Virus record (IMG/VR): IMGVR_UViG_2645728048_000025
From: a virus
Lineage: Duplodnaviria; Heunggongvirae; Uroviricota; Caudoviricetes
Length of the DNA: 15,946 nt
Reading direction: 5' to 3' (one strand)
The notes beneath the pieces are model-generated. The model saw nothing but the letters and a program-made list of their open reading frames with translations, made no database searches and was not told where the DNA came from. The stretch's first letter is position 1; each line of letters opens with the position of its first letter. Position numbers and translations under genes: made by a program. Below, one piece after another: positions 7,448 through 15,946 of this stretch.

Positions 7448-8164
7448 ATGGAAAATAAAAAATCACTGACGACAGAACAGCTCGAAGACGCTAAGCGGCT
7501 TAAGGCTTTGTATGAGTCAAAAAAGAAAGAATTGGGAATAACCCAATACTCAATCGCTGATGAACTGGGTATCACCCAAGGAGCGGTAGGGCATTATCTT
7601 AATGGCAGAAACGCGCTAAACGTTGAGGTTGCATCTGGTTTTGCACGATTGTTGCAAGTCTCAATTGCTGATTTTAGCCAGTCAATTGCTGCCAAGGTTG
7701 CAGAACAGGCAGAAAGCCTTAAGAGCGATGCCAACGTAAGGTATGCAGGGGAATACAGAGCAGGAAAGAGGTATCCGGTGTTAAGCAGTATCCAGGCTGG
7801 CTCGTGGTGTGAAGCATGCGAACCATACACCATTAAAGACATAGATGTTTGGCTTGAGTCTGACGCGCATATTCAAGGTAATGCGTTCTGGCTTAAAGTG
7901 GAAGGTGATTCAATGACGGCACCGGTTGGGTTAAGCATTCCAGAGGGAACATTCGTTCTTTTCGATACCGGAAGGGAGGCGATCAACGGCAGCTTGGTCA
8001 TAGCAAAACTTTCTGACTCTAACGAAGCAACATTCAAGAAGCTGATAATCGACGGCGGAAATAAATACCTCAAGGGACTTAATCCTGCATGGCCTCTCGT
8101 GCCAATCAATGGAAACTGCAAGATTATAGGCGTTGCAATTGAGACAAAACTAAGGCTGGTTTGA
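7448..8164 (+). CDS. cI: CI repressor (HTH N-terminal domain plus S24 LexA-like autopeptidase domain)
   Basis: HTH region (ITQYSIADELGITQGAVGHYLNG), putative Ala-Gly cleavage site in YPVLSSIQAGSW, catalytic Ser in EGDSM and Lys in FKKL; collinear with lambda CI. Confidence 0.9.
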   Translation: MENKKSLTTEQLEDAKRLKALYESKKKELGITQYSIADELGITQGAVGHYLNGRNALNVEVASGFARLLQVSIADFSQSIAAKVAEQAESLKSDANVRYAGEYRAGKRYPVLSSIQAGSWCEACEPYTIKDIDVWLESDAHIQGNAFWLKVEGDSMTAPVGLSIPEGTFVLFDTGREAINGSLVIAKLSDSNEATFKKLIIDGGNKYLKGLNPAWPLVPINGNCKIIGVAIETKLRLV

Positions 8165-8181
8165 TCACGCAAGGGGCGATT

Positions 8182-8550
8182 ATGGTTGGAACCGCTATAG
8201 CAAGCTTTTTGGGGATGTTGGCAATCTCAACAATTTACGGCTTAGCGCATGCTTTTATTGCGAAATCTCTATCAGAAAAAATAAGCCAGGCTTGGGCGCA
8301 TAGATCTGCTCGTTTCATGATTCTAGTGGTCATAGCAATACAAGGGATATCTGCATTTATCCTCTATGGATCAAGCTTATACCTGTTGTATCAAGGCGCG
8401 ACATTTACGCCTTACACCAGTGATTACGGAACTCTATACGATGGTAGTGAAGACATCTCTATGGCTTGGATCGTCTTTGGTTTATCTATGGCCGTGTCTG
8501 TTGTAGCAGACATCATTAAGGTAATTCTCGTCTTAACCTTCGCTGACTAA
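8182..8550 (+). CDS. Small integral membrane protein (about 122 aa) immediately downstream of cI; function unknown
   Basis: ATG at 8182 preceded by AAGGGG, 18 nt after the cI stop. Three long hydrophobic segments. Visibly more AT-rich than cI. Occupies the rexAB/sieB-type slot. Confidence 0.6.
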   Translation: MVGTAIASFLGMLAISTIYGLAHAFIAKSLSEKISQAWAHRSARFMILVVIAIQGISAFILYGSSLYLLYQGATFTPYTSDYGTLYDGSEDISMAWIVFGLSMAVSVVADIIKVILVLTFAD

Positions 8551-8917: not shown

Positions 8918-9190
8918 ATGACAGTAGTCATTACATATCTGGCTGACGATAACGCCAGAAATCGCCGCAGAGCACGCAGACAGGCTCAACGTGAACAGGC
9001 AATGCAAGAGCAGCAACTGGCGCGAAAAATTGCGCTAAAGCTCTCTGGTTGCGTCAGAGCAGATAAAGCAGCATCACTCGGAAGCCTTCGCTGCAAGAAG
9101 GCAGATGAATGCAGTGGAAGTATTTGCCTGCCAAACGTAGCTCTTTACGCGGCAGGCTACCGTAACTCCAAACAACTGACAGCAAGATGA
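8918..9190 (+). CDS. N: N-like transcription antiterminator (arginine-rich motif)
   Basis: 90-aa ORF with N-terminal ARM (DDNARNRRRARRQAQREQAM); GGAGG 5 nt upstream of the ATG; first gene downstream of PL/nutL. Confidence 0.72.
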   Translation: MTVVITYLADDNARNRRRARRQAQREQAMQEQQLARKIALKLSGCVRADKAASLGSLRCKKADECSGSICLPNVALYAAGYRNSKQLTAR

Positions 9191-9250: not shown

Positions 9251-9493
9251 ATGAGAGTAAAAACTATGGGCGCAAGCCCATTAAGTGGTCGTATTTTTCA
9301 AGGAACATTAAACACTGAAAAAGGAATGTGGGTGGGAAAGAAAGAAGATGTAACCGAACAGGCAGTTAAGGCAGTAGCTGAACACATGATGATAAAAGAC
9401 CAGAAATATGCATACGAAACGAAGGATGGCAAATGGCTGATAATAAGTCATCAAATAGTTGATAAATTACCAGAAGAGTTTATTGCTGATTAA
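9251..9493 (+). CDS. Hypothetical protein (80 aa) directly after N
   Basis: ORF with GAGGA upstream; no recognisable family; followed by a hairpin and an intrinsic terminator. Confidence 0.45.
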   Translation: MRVKTMGASPLSGRIFQGTLNTEKGMWVGKKEDVTEQAVKAVAEHMMIKDQKYAYETKDGKWLIISHQIVDKLPEEFIAD

Positions 9494-9621: not shown

Positions 9622-9645
9622 GCCCTCCAGTGCGAGGGCTTTTTT
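9622..9645 (+). terminator. Rho-independent terminator in the PL operon (tL-like)
   Basis: Stem GCCCTC / GAGGGC (9622-9627 / 9634-9639) with a 6-nt loop, followed by TTTTTT (9640-9645). Confidence 0.6.
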
Positions 9646-9711
9646 ATATGCATACCAATAACGCTTCACTTGAGGCGTTTTCGTTATGCAATCAAACAGA
9701 AGGAGCATCCT

Positions 9712-9882
9712 ATGCAACAGTTCGCTATTGCAGGGGCGGCATCGGTTCGCCCTTTCAACCCGATTTTATCGGTGCAGCATTCACGAAAAAATATTTTAAC
9801 CGGAGCAGACTTTAAACAACCAAGAATGAAAAGTTTGCTCGAAAAGCTTTGGGATATTTTGAAACAACAAGGCCGTCCATGA
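9712..9882 (+). CDS. cIII: CIII-like protein (56 aa; putative FtsH-inhibitor that stabilises CII)
   Basis: MQQFAIAGAASV ... SLLEKLWDILKQQGRP, resembling lambda CIII as recalled (MQYAIAG ... RLIDILNQPG); AAGGAG 7 nt upstream of the ATG. Confidence 0.55.
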   Translation: MQQFAIAGAASVRPFNPILSVQHSRKNILTGADFKQPRMKSLLEKLWDILKQQGRP

Positions 9883-10037
9883 GTTTTACAGATAACTGGT
9901 CAGACGAAGAATTCATTCGTCAGATGAAAGAATTAATCGGTAACGAAGGAGATATTCATGTCACTTGCAACCACAGTGAAGGAGAGCAAGTTACAGAGAC
10001 GCATGTACACGCAGAAAGCTCTCTGGTATCGCCATAA
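9879..10037 (+). CDS. Small acidic protein (52 aa) translationally coupled to cIII; Kil-position ORF
   Basis: ATGA overlap with the cIII stop; MSFTDNWSDEEFIRQMKELIGNEGDIHVTCNHSEGEQ...; no recognisable family. Confidence 0.4.
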   Translation: MSFTDNWSDEEFIRQMKELIGNEGDIHVTCNHSEGEQVTETHVHAESSLVSP

Positions 10038-10136
10038 TGGCGACCGCGAAGGAATGCGGGTATGCCTTAATTTGTCCCGAGTCGAAGTATTAAATCAGCG
10101 TTATTTCCTTGGGCCTTGTCCATTCTGAGGTGAATT

Positions 10137-10844
10137 ATGGATTTGAACAAATTCGATGAGCCATTCAGCCCTGAAGATATCGAATGGCGAATACAGCAAA
10201 GCGGTAAAACACGCGATGGCAAGGTGTGGGCTATGGTGCTGGCTTATGTCACGAACCGGGCAATCATGAAACGCCTGGACGATGTTTGCGGCAAAGCAGG
10301 ATGGCGCAATGAATACCGCGATATTCCCAACAACGGCGGCGTTGAATGCGGCATATCAATAAAGATTGATTCCGAATGGGTAACCAAATGGGATGCTGCT
10401 GAAAACACGCAGGTAGAAGCCGTCAAAGGTGGTCGTTCCGGTGCAATGAAGCGCGCTGCCGTTCAGTGGGGAATCGGTCGGTATCTGTATAACCTTGAGG
10501 AAGGTTTCGCACAAACATCTCTCGATAAAAAGCAGGGGTGGCACAGGGCAAAACTGAAGGATGGAACAGGATTTTACTGGCTCCCTCCATCGCTTCCGGG
10601 ATGGGCAATCCCAGCATCAGATAACAAACCATCACCAGAAAATACCAACCAGAAATCTCCATCGGTTGACTGCGAACAAATCCTGAAAGACTTCAGCGAT
10701 TATGCGTCAACAGAAACTGACAAGAAAAAACTCATCGAGCGTTATCAGCGTGACTGGCAATTAATGGCTGGCAATGAGGATGCGCAGGCTAAATGCGTTC
10801 AGGTAATGAGCATCAGAGTTAACGAACTAAAACAGGCGGCATAA
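10137..10844 (+). CDS. Single-strand annealing recombinase: Rad52/Sak-like core with an Erf-like C-terminal tail
   Basis: Core motif AVQWGIGRYLYNLEEG is typical of Rad52-family annealing proteins; the C-terminal 60 aa (ILKDFSDYASTETDKKKLIERYQRDWQLMAGNEDAQAKCVQVMSIRVNELKQAA) resembles the C-terminus of P22 Erf as recalled. GAGGTGA RBS. Confidence 0.72.
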   Translation: MDLNKFDEPFSPEDIEWRIQQSGKTRDGKVWAMVLAYVTNRAIMKRLDDVCGKAGWRNEYRDIPNNGGVECGISIKIDSEWVTKWDAAENTQVEAVKGGRSGAMKRAAVQWGIGRYLYNLEEGFAQTSLDKKQGWHRAKLKDGTGFYWLPPSLPGWAIPASDNKPSPENTNQKSPSVDCEQILKDFSDYASTETDKKKLIERYQRDWQLMAGNEDAQAKCVQVMSIRVNELKQAA

Positions 10845-11351
10845 ATGGCAAGCAGAGGCGTAAATAAGGTGATTATCCTTGGTCGGGTAGGACAAGACCC
10901 GGAAGTTCGATACTCACCATCAGGAACAGCGTTCGCTAACCTGACAATAGCCACGTCAGAACAATGGCGAGATAAAAATACTGGCGAGCAAAAGGAATTG
11001 ACTGAATGGCATCGTGTTGCTGTATCCGGGAAACTGGCTGAGGTCGTGGGGCAGTATGTGAAAAAAGGTGATCAGATTTATTTCGAGGGAATGCTGAGAA
11101 CCAGAAAGTGGAAAGACCAGTCAGGGCAAGACCGTTACACAACCGAGGTTCATGTCGGAATTAATGGCGTGATGCAGATGCTTGGCGGCATTGGCGACAG
11201 CAAACAACAAGCAGCCAGCAGGCAATCACAGAAGCCACAGCAGCAATCATCACCAGCACAACACAACGAACCTCCGATGGATTTTGACGACGATATACCC
11301 TTTGCACCAGTAACTCTCCCCTTCCCTCGTCACGCTATTCACGCAATTTAA
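10845..11351 (+). CDS. ssb: Single-stranded DNA-binding protein with a 15-aa extension beyond the DDDIPF tip
   Basis: OB-fold N-terminus ([39 protein letters not shown]), Gln-rich linker, MDFDDDIPF, then [15 protein letters not shown] before the stop. Confidence 0.85.
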
Positions 11352-11364
11352 TCAGGAGAAAATC

Positions 11365-11661
11365 ATGCCAGCGCCTCTGTATGGTGCGGACGACGCGCGC
11401 CGCTGTTCCGGCAATTCCGTATCGGAGGTGCTGGATAAATTCAGAAAAAACTACGACCTGATAATGTCGCTACCGCAGGAAACGAAAGAGGAAAAGGAAT
11501 TTCGCCACTGTATATGGCTTGCAGAGAAAGAAGAACGCGAGCGAATTTACCAGACATCAATCCGACCATTCCGCAAAGCCACATATACCCACTTCCCTGA
11601 ATATATCGACCCGCGCCTGCGTAATTACCGCTCACGCTATGGCGCTATCAGTAATGACTGA
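11365..11661 (+). CDS. Hypothetical protein (98 aa)
   Basis: ORF with AGGAG upstream; no recognisable family. Confidence 0.5.
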
Positions 11662-11671
11662 GGAATTTACC

Positions 11672-11839
11672 ATGAGAGGACTTGCATACAATCCCGGAAT
11701 TCTTCCGGCAGAAATGATTATTCGCCAACGCGTAAAGCCAATGCCATCGATAGAGGAATTGCTTAAGAGAAATTCTTTTCCATCAGTGAATCAAAACAAA
11801 TATCTGAATGCGATGTGGCGTAAAGGAGGCAAGCAGTGA
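11672..11839 (+). CDS. Hypothetical small protein (55 aa)
   Basis: Internal ATG of the track ORF 11519..11839, preceded by GAGGAA; begins 11 nt after the previous stop. Confidence 0.4.
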
Positions 11840-12090
11840 GTAATTCCGCACGACTACAGCTTGGTTTTTCACCGCTATCAAAAACTATCATGCTGGCAAA
11901 AATGCGCGATGTTGAAGGTGGACGTATGCGCGTTGGCAATGATCCAGGTCGTGATGTTACCAATGAGGCTGCTCAATTGGTGTGGCGACTGGTCATGGCT
12001 GAAGGTGGTGAGATCGCGTGGGAGCTGGATGATGGTTCTCGCATGGTGTTGAAGGCAGAAAAGCAGGAGGCAACCAGTGAGCAAGATTGA
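11836..12090 (+). CDS. Hypothetical protein (84 aa, GTG start)
   Basis: GTG preceded by AAGGAGG, overlapping the previous stop (GTGA). Confidence 0.45.
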
Positions 12091-13837: not shown

Positions 13838-13902
13838 TTTATTTATTCATATATGAAAACAATGTAACCAATATTCGAATTGAAGAACTGAAAGAACACC
13901 AA

Positions 13903-13926
13903 GCCGCCTGATGGCGGTTTTTTATT
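13903..13926 (+). terminator. Rho-independent terminator closing the plus-strand early-left gene block
   Basis: GCCGCC-tgat-GGCGGT followed by TTTTTTATT. Confidence 0.6.
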
Positions 13927-13933
13927 GCCTGAT

Positions 13934-13949
13934 TTGCAGGTTCGATTCC
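13934..13949 (+). other. tRNA-derived fragment A (T-arm segment TTGCAGGTTCGATTCC); candidate att core
   Basis: 16 nt matching the T-stem/T-loop region of tRNA-Arg (argW) as I recall it; no 5' tRNA portion precedes it. Confidence 0.45.
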
Positions 13950-13968
13950 CTATTCGGAGATAGCACTC

Positions 13969-14169
13969 ATGCAACACGAACTACAACCTGATTCACTGGT
14001 TGATTTGAAATTCATCATGGCCGATACTGGCTTCGGTAAAACCTTCATCTATGACCGGATTAAGTCCGGCGACCTGCCTAAAGCCAAAGTTATCCACGGA
14101 CGAGCAAGATGGTTATATCGTGACCATTGTGAATTCAAAAATAAGCTCTTAAGCCGCGCCAATGGGTAA
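13969..14169 (+). CDS. AlpA/Xis-family small DNA-binding protein (excisionase-like, 66 aa), with no adjacent integrase
   Basis: LVDLKFIMADTGFGKTFIYDRIKSGDLPKAKVIHGRARWLYRD fits the AlpA-type winged-helix pattern; GGAGA upstream of the ATG. Confidence 0.55.
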   Translation: MQHELQPDSLVDLKFIMADTGFGKTFIYDRIKSGDLPKAKVIHGRARWLYRDHCEFKNKLLSRANG

Positions 14170-14242
14170 AATAGCGGGTAAAATATTTCTCATATCTCAA
14201 AAACACCATTCCAATCAATCCCCTGCTGCCTCAAGTAGATGT

Positions 14243-14257
14243 CTGCAGGGGACACCA
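14243..14257 (+). other. tRNA-derived fragment B (3' end CTGCAGGGGACACCA); candidate att copy or host junction
   Basis: Matches the 3'-terminal acceptor/T-stem sequence of argW as recalled, including the terminal CCA; the preceding bases AGATGTC look like a degenerate T-loop. Confidence 0.45.
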
Positions 14258-14645
14258 GATACCCTTCAAACGAAATCTACCTTCACCCCGTAAAAGATGG
14301 GTTTGGCAGCACACTTGCCTTATATCTACTCATTTTTACTGCAACAGGTTGAAATCTCAGCACTGTCAGAAAGCGCTGATGACTAAACAGCCCTGGGCCG
14401 GGCGATGTAACCATCACACAGAATCCTGATAGCGAAATATGGCGTGACTCGATACTTCACTCCGCAATGCATTCCTTGATGAATTCGCAGGACCGTGATA
14501 CACGGGACAGGTCACTGAATGACGACAATGTCCTGGAAATCAGCGAACCGCGCATCTGAAGTACATTTGAGCGACTGTACCAGAACATGAATGAGGCGTT
14601 TGGATTAGGCGATTATTAGCAGGGCTAAGCATTTTACTATTATTA

Positions 14646-14689
14646 TTTTCCGGTTGAGGGATATAGAGCTATCGACAACAACCGGAAAA
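14646..14689. repeat. 11-bp perfect inverted repeat TTTTCCGGTTG / CAACCGGAAAA with a 22-nt spacer, just downstream of the cscB stop
   Basis: Seen directly in the sequence; no U-tract follows the stem on either strand, so it is not a canonical intrinsic terminator. Confidence 0.4.
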
Positions 14690-14698
14690 AGTTTACGT

Positions 14699-15946
14699 CT
14701 ATATTGCTGAAGGTACAGGCGTTTCCATAACTATTTGCTCGCGTTTTTTACTCAAGAAGAAAATGCCAAATAGCAACATCAGGCAGACAATACCCGAAAT
14801 TGCGAAGAAAACTGTCTGGTAGCCTGCGTGGTCAAAGAGTATCCCAGTCGGCGTTGAAAGCAGCACAATCCCAAGCGAACTGGCAATTTGAAAACCAATC
14901 AGAAAGATCGTCGACGACAGGCGCTTATCAAAGTTTGCCACGCTGTATTTGAAGACGGATATGACACAAAGTGGAACCTCAATGGCATGTAACAACTTCA
15001 CTAATGAAATAATCCAGGGGTTAACGAACAGCGCGCAGGAAAGGATACGCAACGCCATAATCACAACTCCGATAAGTAATGCATTTTTTGGCTCTACCCG
15101 ATTCACAAAGAAAGGAATAATCGCCATGCACAGCGCTTCGAGTACCACCTGGAATGAGTTGAGATAACCATACAGGCGCGTTCCTACATCGTGTGATTCG
15201 AATAAACCTGCATAAAAGACAGGAAAAAGTTGTTGATCAAAAATGTTATAGAAAGACCACGTCCCCACAATAAATATGACGAAAACCCAGAAGTTTCGAT
15301 CCTTGAAAACTGCGATAAAATCCTCTTTTTTTACCCCTCCCGCATCTGCCGCTACGCACTGGTGATCCTTATCTTTAAAACGCATGTTGATCATCATAAA
15401 TACAGCGCCAAATAGCGAGACCAACCAGAAGTTGATATGGGGACTGATACTAAAAAATATGCCGGCAAAGAACGCGCCAATAGCATAGCCAAAAGATCCC
15501 CAGGCGCGCGCTGTTCCATATTCGAAATGAAAATTTCGCGCCATTTTTTCGGTGAAGCTATCAAGCAAACCGCATCCCGCCAGATACCCCAAGCCAAAAA
15601 ATAGCGCCCCCAGAATTAGACCTACAGAAAAATTGCTTTGCAGTAACGGTTCATAAACGTAAATCATAAACGGTCCGGTCAAGACCAGGATGAAACTCAT
15701 ACACCAGATGAGCGGTTTCTTCAGACCGAGTTTATCCTGAACGATGCCGTAGAACATCATAAATAGAATGCTGGTAAACTGGTTGACCGAATAAAGTGTA
15801 CCTAATTCCGTCCCTGTCAACCCTAGATGTCCTTTCAGCCAAATAGCGTATAACGACCACCACAGCGACCAGGAAATAAAAAAGAGAAATGAGTAACTGG
15901 ATGCAAAACGATAGTACGCATTTCTGAATGGAATATTCAGTGCCAT
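14699..15946 (-). CDS. cscB: LacY-family (MFS) oligosaccharide:H+ symporter, sucrose permease CscB-like (415 aa, complete)
   Basis: N-terminus MALNIPFRNAYYRFASSYSFLFFISWSLWWSLYAIWL and overall layout match LacY-family permeases, and to my recollection E. coli CscB specifically. The start codon is at the last base of the window. Confidence 0.8.
   Translation of the reverse strand: MALNIPFRNAYYRFASSYSFLFFISWSLWWSLYAIWLKGHLGLTGTELGTLYSVNQFTSILFMMFYGIVQDKLGLKKPLIWCMSFILVLTGPFMIYVYEPLLQSNFSVGLILGALFFGLGYLAGCGLLDSFTEKMARNFHFEYGTARAWGSFGYAIGAFFAGIFFSISPHINFWLVSLFGAVFMMINMRFKDKDHQCVAADAGGVKKEDFIAVFKDRNFWVFVIFIVGTWSFYNIFDQQLFPVFYAGLFESHDVGTRLYGYLNSFQVVLEALCMAIIPFFVNRVEPKNALLIGVVIMALRILSCALFVNPWIISLVKLLHAIEVPLCVISVFKYSVANFDKRLSSTIFLIGFQIASSLGIVLLSTPTGILFDHAGYQTVFFAISGIVCLMLLFGIFFLSKKREQIVMETPVPSAI

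Follow-up and report, generated by a model that had tools for sequence, protein, structure and literature searches.

The 52-residue acidic ORF studied here is best read as an accessory recombination peptide resembling Arf of phage P22 and as the first gene of a recombination module, a reading to which we assign a probability of about 0.5 from sequence and gene-order comparisons. It is not a substitute for Kil, and probably not a division inhibitor of the Kil type; this prophage is simply without kil. The main outcome of our survey is that a positional misreading of the 52-aa ORF has been corrected, as an earlier note on the same DNA had placed it in the kil position, immediately upstream of the recombinase.

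On the + strand, as presented here, the window (the whole analysed stretch of 15,946 nucleotides) contains the early-left (pL) operon of a lambdoid prophage (Table 1). An E. coli chromosome matches the region at 99.8% identity, and the complete arrangement was recovered in 213 of 5426 complete E. coli genomes, parts of it being found in 1118; E. coli W and EPEC E2348/69 are examples of strains that have it. The early expression that had been supposed for the cIII-like gene and its neighbour agrees with this setting, since both genes lie in the N-dependent early-left operon, with N upstream and the recombinase, SSB and Abc2 genes downstream. In HK75, two terminators are annotated at the place homologous to the window hairpins at 9622-9649 and 9660-9689. 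A search for an internal promoter gave one 9/12 match at 9885-9912, and the number of sites in the region (3 versus 2.4 expected) is at chance level; the Rfam search of the window gave no match.

Table 1. Positions of the genes and signals of the early-left region in the window
Feature	Position	Strand	Supporting match or signal
cI-like repressor	7448-8164		
N	8918-9190		PF25694
DUF7446 gene	9251-9493		
Terminator-like hairpin with T-run, first of two, upstream of the cIII-like gene	9622..9649	+	
Second terminator-like hairpin	9660..9689	+	
cIII-like ORF, 56 aa, basic (pI 11)	9712..9882	+	AAGGAG Shine-Dalgarno 9700-9705
ATGA start/stop overlap, cIII-like ORF and 52-aa ORF	9879..9882	+	
52-aa acidic ORF, Sf6 gp30 / HK97 gp42.1 family	9879..10037	+	
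Conserved core of the 52-aa ORF, residues 1-20 (MSFTDNWSDEEFIRQMKELI)	9879..9938	+	
AAGGAG Shine-Dalgarno of the gp29-like gene, within codons 23-25 (E-G-D) of the 52-aa ORF	9946..9951	+	
80-nt two-frame overlap, tail of the 52-aa ORF (residues 27-52) and N-terminus of the gp29-like ORF	9958..10037	+	
gp29-like ORF, 56 aa, basic (pI 10)	9958..10128	+	phrog_1723, E=9.4e-36
Rad52-like single-strand annealing protein with P22-Erf-type C-terminal domain	10137..10844	+	PF04098, E=5e-26
Phage SSB	10845..11351	+	PF00436, E=1.6e-36
Abc2 anti-RecBCD protein	11365..11661	+	PF11043, E=4e-62

The protein encoded by the 52-aa ORF had been described as unknown, but it is 100% identical to the Sf6 gene 30 protein (gp30) and is a member of PHROG 2123, its residues 1-52 matching profile positions 1-52 of 52 (E=6.6e-42). 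Homologues in HK022 (HK022p38), mEp235 and HK75 are ~92% identical to it, and HK97 gp42.1 is 89.8% identical over residues 1-49. The family is thus an already known one, annotated in Sf6, HK97 and HK022 for about twenty years and common in E. coli prophages, and RefSeq lists the protein as WP_000010966.1, 'hypothetical protein'. The acidic character attributed to it holds (11 D/E versus 2 K/R, pI 4.43). When 1.84 billion representative proteins were searched with the family profile, no more than 30 clusters came up, all from the same enterobacterial family, indicating a narrow family of enterobacterial phages; a scan of genome contigs gave seven loci, two of them usefully divergent. Far from being missing in related phages, an outcome that the earlier note had allowed for, the ORF is widely conserved among them. 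Sequence searches of PDB, NCBIfam and PADLOC with the 52-aa ORF, the gp29-like ORF and the cIII-like ORF gave nothing meaningful.

The claim that the cIII-like stop and the next start share ATGA is confirmed, as the TGA at 9880-9882 overlaps the ATG at 9879-9881. The same overlap is kept in all of 80 IMG/VR loci chosen because they carry an identical or nearly identical 52-aa ORF, whether Kil or cIII lies upstream, and it is replaced by GTGA in the Pseudocitrobacter homologue. The Shine-Dalgarno sequence of the ORF itself is weak (AAGG). Translational coupling, as proposed before, is plausible on these grounds, and the weak AAGG together with the invariant overlap suggests termination and reinitiation at ATGA. 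The surrounding order is equally constant: in 80/80 loci as well as in Sf6, mEp235 and HK75, the ORF is flanked by an overlap with Kil or cIII on one side and an overlap with the gp29-like gene on the other, followed by an annealing protein. The next large gene is Rad52-like in 44 of these loci and Erf in 35. Natural indels within the family are all in-frame, for instance a 15-nt deletion in the phiKp_30 homologue and 21-nt tandem duplications of the heptad EFIRQMK in the database variants P0001 and P0022, and these are compatible with a helical peptide. Judged from its full-length profile match, the kept overlap and the selection on its core described below, the 52-aa ORF is a genuine small gene, probably translated, and more than a chance reading frame.

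The gene order in relatives bears directly on the Kil question. In Sf6, HK97, HK022, mEp235 and HK75 the order is cIII, Kil, the homologue of the 52-aa ORF, the gp29-like gene and the annealing protein, and among the 80 IMG/VR loci the gene overlapping the ATG of the ORF is a lambda-type Kil in 56, while in 24 it is the cIII-like gene of 56 aa. The 52-aa gene is thus ATGA-coupled to Kil in Sf6, HK97 and HK022, whereas in the window and ~30% of its relatives it is coupled directly to the cIII-like gene, kil being absent. As most phages have a genuine Kil between cIII and the 52-aa ORF, the ORF occurs beside Kil and not in its stead, and the suggestion of a possible Kil analogue in the kil position is not upheld. 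It resembles the Kil proteins of lambda and P22 in being a small peptide of the early-left operon encoded between cIII and the recombination genes, but it has no sequence similarity to them, and it differs from lambda Kil in having a single predicted helix instead of a helix-turn-helix and an acidic instead of a basic C-terminus.

It is accordingly very improbable that the ORF is a non-homologous analogue of Kil that blocks host division in phages without kil. Such an analogue would fit the window, which is without lambda-type or P22-type kil and in which the 52-aa ORF directly follows cIII; moreover, small size and acidity (pI 4.4) are features of P22 Kil too, and phage division inhibitors are diverse in sequence (PMC6206680). 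An identical ORF follows a bona fide Kil in the 56 loci mentioned above, however, and neither the 52-aa ORF nor the gp29-like ORF matched Pfam Lambda_Kil (PF06301) at E<=1, against 1.7e-20 for the control, Sf6 Kil. The earlier remark that the sequence is not recognisably Kil is in line with this result. Lambda Kil requires a helix-turn-helix core and a conserved basic C-terminal RSK/RSSK motif (PMC11762379), while the 52-aa sequence, with its one predicted helix, is devoid of the RSK motif. A Kil encoded elsewhere in the window was also considered and rejected, as neither the Kil HMM nor a phmmer search with P22 Kil yielded anything below E=0.27 among 387 stop-to-stop ORFs. In the UTI89 filamentation screen, the hit spans cIII-kil2-C2684-C2685-erf and does not separate the family member from kil2.

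The gp29-like ORF is the actual neighbour of the recombinase. The 52-aa ORF had been said to sit immediately upstream of the recombinase, but the gp29-like ORF (9958..10128), overlooked in that description, intervenes. In a different frame it shares 80 nt with the 3' end of the 52-aa ORF, and 9 nt separate its own end from the start of the recombinase gene at 10137. Several observations show it to be a real gene: its product is identical to Sf6 gp29, the differences from mEp235 and HK75 are mostly synonymous third-position changes (GAC/GAT, CGC/CGT, GGA/GGT, CGG/CGC), and diverged homologues are found in SPN9CC, an Enterobacter phage and Pseudocitrobacter. The idea that it represents a disguised Kil, both being helical proteins of ~50 aa with a central GD, was rejected (hhalign probability 1.3%, P=0.041). 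Several database labels at this locus are misleading, namely 'CIII anti-termination' and 'recombinase', the latter given to both PHROG 1723 and PHROG 2123, in the second case with no visible basis.

As for the upstream gene, its cIII-like identity stands in part. The 56-aa ORF matches phrog_550 'CIII' (E=1e-22), it lies downstream of the tL-type terminator-like hairpins and upstream of the recombination genes, and it is syntenic with the corresponding genes of SPN9CC, HK140 and SEN22. On the other hand, it has no match to Pfam Lambda_CIII (PF02061) at E<=1, where the control, P22 C3, scores 1.4e-26, and RefSeq labels it a hypothetical protein. With hhalign only residues 1-22 align to canonical cIII (the N-terminal M..AIAG; P=0.0015), and the C-terminal L.DILKQQG resembles LADILNQPG. 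The central amphipathic region of lambda cIII has been reported as necessary for FtsH inhibition, and the central region of canonical cIII is not recognisable in the 56-aa ORF. On these matches the label 'cIII-like' seems acceptable.

Divergent relatives allow the parts of the 52-aa ORF to be distinguished. The Enterobacter phage vB_Ecl_MII_001 has the order Kil, ATGA, 54-aa ORF, gp29-like gene and Sak4-like ATPase, and Pseudocitrobacter faecalis has cIII-like, GTGA, 53-aa ORF, gp29-like gene, ATPase, SSB and an Abc2-like gene. Salmonella phages of the SPN9CC type have a 60-aa form, whereas many E. coli and Salmonella phages possess forms of 35-39 aa followed by an ORF of 102-105 aa and RecT (HK140, Louie, Enterobacter adelaidei); in SEN22, a relative of the ORF is followed by an ExoVIII-like gene. 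Across these lineages residues 1-20 follow the consensus M-S-[FI]-[TA]-D-[NT]-W-[ST]-[DE]-[ED]-x-F-[IV]-R-x-M-x-x-[LMI]-[IL], and identity between lineages is 11-17/27 in the core versus 5-8/27 in the tail. For codons 2-20, pN/pS is 0.18-0.67 between divergent lineages with synonymous sites near saturation; between the window and Pseudocitrobacter, for instance, 9.5 of 9.8 synonymous sites have changed versus 18% of the non-synonymous ones. The amino-acid changes in the core are conservative (F/I, I/V, L/M, D/E). These comparisons show purifying selection on the amino-acid sequence of residues 1-20.

The next residues are constrained in another way. Residues 21-27 read G-N-E-G-D-I-H, or Q-H-K-E-Q-E-K in other lineages, and their codons contain the Shine-Dalgarno and the ATG from which the downstream gene is translated (GAAGGAG..ATG or CAGGAG..ATG). 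It is mainly this double use of the codons, as ribosome-binding site and start of the next gene, that keeps these residues fixed. The embedded Shine-Dalgarno is kept in divergent lineages, as GAAGGAGG in the Enterobacter phage and as CAGGAG in SPN9CC and the RecT-type loci. AlphaFold2, run on a 27-sequence alignment, predicts a single helix at residues 9-21 (pLDDT ~84 for 11-20) and disorder elsewhere. The working part is shown by these data to be a 20-residue N-terminal acidic-aromatic segment, with D5, W7 and S8-D-E-E preceding a predicted amphipathic helix that presents F12, I13, M16, L19 and I20. A natural frameshift fusion of the core to gp29 (P0049) gave a single-sequence AlphaFold2 model with pLDDT 58, too poor to interpret.

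The last 25 residues, by contrast with the core, form a hydrophilic, mostly acidic tail that is unconstrained in sequence and encoded in a second frame across the beginning of the gp29-like gene. Within the overlap the gp29 frame is the more conserved of the two; for instance, 18/28 residues are identical between the window and Pseudocitrobacter in the gp29 frame versus 8/27 in the frame of the 52-aa ORF. Given the gp29 protein and local codon usage, the chance that the latter frame stays open is P=0.14-0.50 per lineage, and the product over four lineages, treated as independent, is ~0.011. There may thus be some retention of a tail of some length, and nothing indicates that its sequence matters.

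These features also bear on whether the peptide itself is of any importance. It could be irrelevant, the ORF serving only as a translational relay from cIII or Kil to the gp29-like gene and recombinase, or as a modulator of the gp29 start. The ATGA overlap with its weak Shine-Dalgarno, the location of the gp29 Shine-Dalgarno and ATG inside the ORF, the unconstrained tail and a tail openness weakly beyond chance are all consistent with a relay. We nevertheless regard it as improbable, because the core is under amino-acid selection while its synonymous sites are saturated, and because gp29, having a strong AAGGAG, is likely to be initiated independently. The local fold of the RNA is moreover unremarkable (z=-1.85), and its hairpin GACGAA..TTCGTC is, by eye, not recognisable in the Enterobacter or Pseudocitrobacter homologues. 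A conserved RNA element as the cause of nucleotide conservation in the core was likewise rejected on the basis of this fold and the lack of an Rfam match.

The counterpart of the 52-aa ORF in P22 seems to be Arf. In P22 the order is c3-kil-arf-erf, with overlapping starts and stops, and Arf has 47 aa and a pI of 4.05. Both proteins are therefore acidic and of ~50 aa, and both occupy the slot after kil that heads the recombination genes, upstream of Rad52-like or Erf genes. The Arf profile found 80 IMG/VR loci, in which the cassette typically consists of c3, a kil of the P22 type, arf and annealing protein, the last usually being a 235-aa Rad52-like protein nearly identical to that of the window, or Erf. 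The two peptides exclude each other: the gp30-type core is present in 0/58 Arf loci (those that could be parsed), and Arf in 0/80 loci with the 52-aa ORF. Arf and the 52-aa ORF are alternative occupants of one slot before the same recombinases.

A remote relation by descent between the two is possible, with modest statistical support. They share (F/W)SDEEFI (residues 5-11 in Arf and 7-13 in the 52-aa ORF), and a reading of both sequences shows similar hydrophobic spacing. The Arf family, PHROG 2445, scores the 52-aa ORF at E=0.037, and hhalign comparison of the two families gave P=0.0012 and 0.0026 (probability 19% and 12%). In an ungapped profile-profile test with composition-preserving column shuffling, 7/5000 and 2/5000 shuffles reached the observed score. 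The match comprises ~14 residues of acidic motif, however, and Pfam Phage_Arf (PF17585) had no match to the 52-aa ORF at E<=1, against 1.9e-35 (121 bits) for the control, P22 Arf. The reciprocal HMMER searches were non-significant, with Arf ranking third of 406 P22 ORFs (E=0.77; an acidic stretch of P22 Abc1 outscored it) and the 52-aa ORF third of 387 window ORFs (E=2.2). No bridge between the gp30 family and Arf appeared in the profile search of the 1.84 billion representative proteins. One nr record names a 90%-identical homologue of the 52-aa ORF 'accessory recombination function protein'.

There are differences in layout as well. Arf directly adjoins the annealing-protein gene and has a conserved C-terminal half (EEVEQQINLAAERQN..WDEF), whereas in the gp30 family the tail varies and one more gene comes next, either gp29-like or, in RecT-type loci, the 102-aa ORF. 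Since the gp29-like gene intervenes here, the functional counterpart of Arf could be gp29 or both proteins together. The idea that Arf is the 52-aa core fused to the gp29 C-terminus was tried and rejected (hhalign of gp29 versus Arf, P=0.52). Taken at the level that these alignments allow, Arf would be a functional and positional analogue of the 52-aa ORF and a possible remote homologue, but not a demonstrated member of the family. Arf was identified in 1991 by Poteete et al., as cited in PMC12315714, and it 'aids in, but is not essential for' recombination with Erf (PMC12315714). According to the literature it is unknown how Arf acts, and a DNA mimic has been suggested on account of its small size and acidity (PMC9836394).

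The company kept by the ORF is informative about a possible partner. Sf6 gp30, HK97 gp42.1 and HK022p38 are the nearest known systems, and in Sf6 the likeness continues downstream, through the overlapping gp29-like gene to the annealing protein, which is Rad52-like there too. The family as a whole heads modules of the Rad52-like, Erf, RecT, Sak4-like and ExoVIII-like types, with divergent or short forms in the last three. As the same core accompanies Rad52-like, Erf, RecT and Sak4-like modules, its partner should be common to all of them. A C-terminal domain of ~50 residues is in fact common to Rad52-like, Erf and RecT proteins, one Sak4-like ATPase and a 189-aa protein of SEN22 (pairwise BLASTP E 1e-9 to 1e-4 in a set of seven sequences), and the C-terminal 79 aa of the Rad52-like protein in the window share 63% identity with P22 Erf.

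On the other hand, the family is found with recombinases that have no fewer than four unrelated architectures, and this would fit a function independent of the annealing protein equally well. The peptide might be directed at the host, inhibiting a nuclease, defence or repair factor early in infection as a mimic of DNA or of the SSB tail, or as a helix-in-groove inhibitor, and not be a cofactor of the phage recombinase. No sequence relation to T7 gp5.9 was seen, the PDB sequence search being without matches, and the 52-aa ORF has one short predicted helix. The resemblance to T7 gp5.9 and other small acidic anti-RecBCD DNA mimics lies in size, charge and early expression beside recombination functions (PMC9836394). 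A host-directed role seems unlikely, though less so than a mere relay: the acidity (pI 4.43), the early-left operon, the nearness of the anti-RecBCD gene abc2 and the association with all five module types, which argues against a fold-specific partner, are in its favour, and Arf itself has been considered a DNA mimic (PMC9836394). A 13-residue helix with an unconstrained tail is small for a DNA mimic, however, anti-RecBCD functions are already provided in the modules by Abc2 or Gam-like genes, and PADLOC, NCBIfam and PDB sequence searches gave no match. This alternative overlaps with the preferred reading because the mechanism of Arf is itself unknown.

Under the preferred reading of an Arf-like accessory peptide, the 52-aa ORF would be transcribed from pL after N antitermination and probably owe most of its translation to ribosomes that finish the upstream gene and restart at ATGA, this gene being cIII here and Kil in most relatives. 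With its helix the peptide would then dock onto a protein that all these modules have in common, and thereby promote recombination driven by the annealing protein as well as recombination-dependent growth. Candidate partners are SSB, the C-terminal domain that the annealing proteins share, and host enzymes of end processing such as RecBCD.

A bolder extension, which we consider doubtful, is that gp30-type peptides and P22 Arf constitute one superfamily whose helix is a universal adaptor of lambdoid recombination modules. Its proposed signature would be an acidic-aromatic helix of ~20 residues, [DE]-[WFM]-[ST]-[DE]-[DE]-x-F-[IVY]-x-x-[MI], docking on the portable ~50-residue C-terminal domain or on the SSB partner of that domain. 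If true, such an adaptor helix would account for the occurrence of one and the same peptide beside recombinases whose folds are unrelated. The 52-aa ORF also illustrates cleanly how the 3' half of a small gene can be no more than an unconstrained reading, in a different frame, of the gene that follows. Finally, it gives a testable handle on Arf, because a second and apparently interchangeable family has no more than a 14-residue motif in common with Arf, so that the activity can be sought in a smaller part of the protein.

Natural in-frame length variants occur in the core of the family to which the 52-aa ORF belongs. The heptad EFIRQMK is tandemly duplicated, two- and three-fold, in the ORF's database homologues P0001 and P0022, and a 15-nt deletion has removed DNWSD from the homologue in Klebsiella phage phiKp_30. 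Related loci with RecT possess a short form of the peptide (35-39 aa), followed by a conserved acidic ORF of 102-105 aa that takes the place of gp29-like and whose sole Pfam match is HJURP_C at 0.099.

The gp29-like ORF itself is conserved from E. coli phages through Enterobacter and Pseudocitrobacter, and shows no relation to Pfam or PDB entries, Kil or Arf. In strain 214-4, the single E. coli genome inspected, it is absent from the RefSeq annotation. The 56-aa 'cIII' of the window belongs to PHROG 550 but fails the Pfam Lambda_CIII model, and its likeness to canonical cIII is confined to M..AIAG at the N-terminus and L.DILKQQG at the C-terminus; kil is often missing from phages with this 56-aa form. 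In PHROG-derived annotation, both small ORF families (PHROG 2123 and PHROG 1723) bear the product name 'recombinase', and the name given to cIII is 'CIII anti-termination'. No support is visible for either name, and the questioned names occur in RefSeq phage records such as NC_005344 and NC_019708.

Features of the window and of related loci (L-numbers; L001, phage phiKp_30)
Feature	Coordinates	Strand	Remarks
129-aa ORF	8161-8550	+	very hydrophobic; directly after cI-like repressor gene, overlapping it
DUF7446 paralogue, first of two	9251-9493	+	early-left operon, upstream of cIII-like gene
cIII-like ORF	9712-9882	+	56 aa
52-aa ORF	9879-10037	+	
gp29-like ORF	9958-10128	+	56 aa, basic; 80-nt overlap with 52-aa ORF; strong Shine-Dalgarno
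Portable C-terminal domain	within 10137-10844 product, about residues 170-235		also L092, L100, L094, L101
DUF7446 paralogue, second of two	11836-12090	+	early-left operon, downstream of Abc2
LacY-family sugar symporter	14699-15946	minus	PF01306, E=1.6e-192
Acidic 102-105-aa ORF	L092 2089-2397		RecT-type modules; also L093, L094, L090, L101
phiKp_30 homologue of 52-aa ORF	L001 2376-2516		lacks DNWSD

Elsewhere in the prophage, the 129-aa ORF has no match in Pfam and may encode an exclusion-type membrane protein expressed in the lysogen. The transition from prophage genes to the sugar symporter lies in 13856-15946, where no prophage end or attachment site is obvious; since no ORF of at least 70 aa separates the two, there is no candidate integrase between them, and no tRNA genes were found anywhere in the window.

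A portable C-terminal domain of approximately 50 residues is shared by annealing proteins of different folds, its carriers being Rad52-like, Erf and RecT proteins, one Sak4-like ATPase and the SEN22 189-aa protein. Pairwise BLASTP comparisons among these carriers gave E = 1e-9 to 1e-4, and the C-terminus of P22 Erf is 63% identical to that of the Rad52-like protein of the window. It is possible that this domain represents a common docking site, for which either SSB or the small peptide encoded by the 52-aa ORF is a candidate partner.
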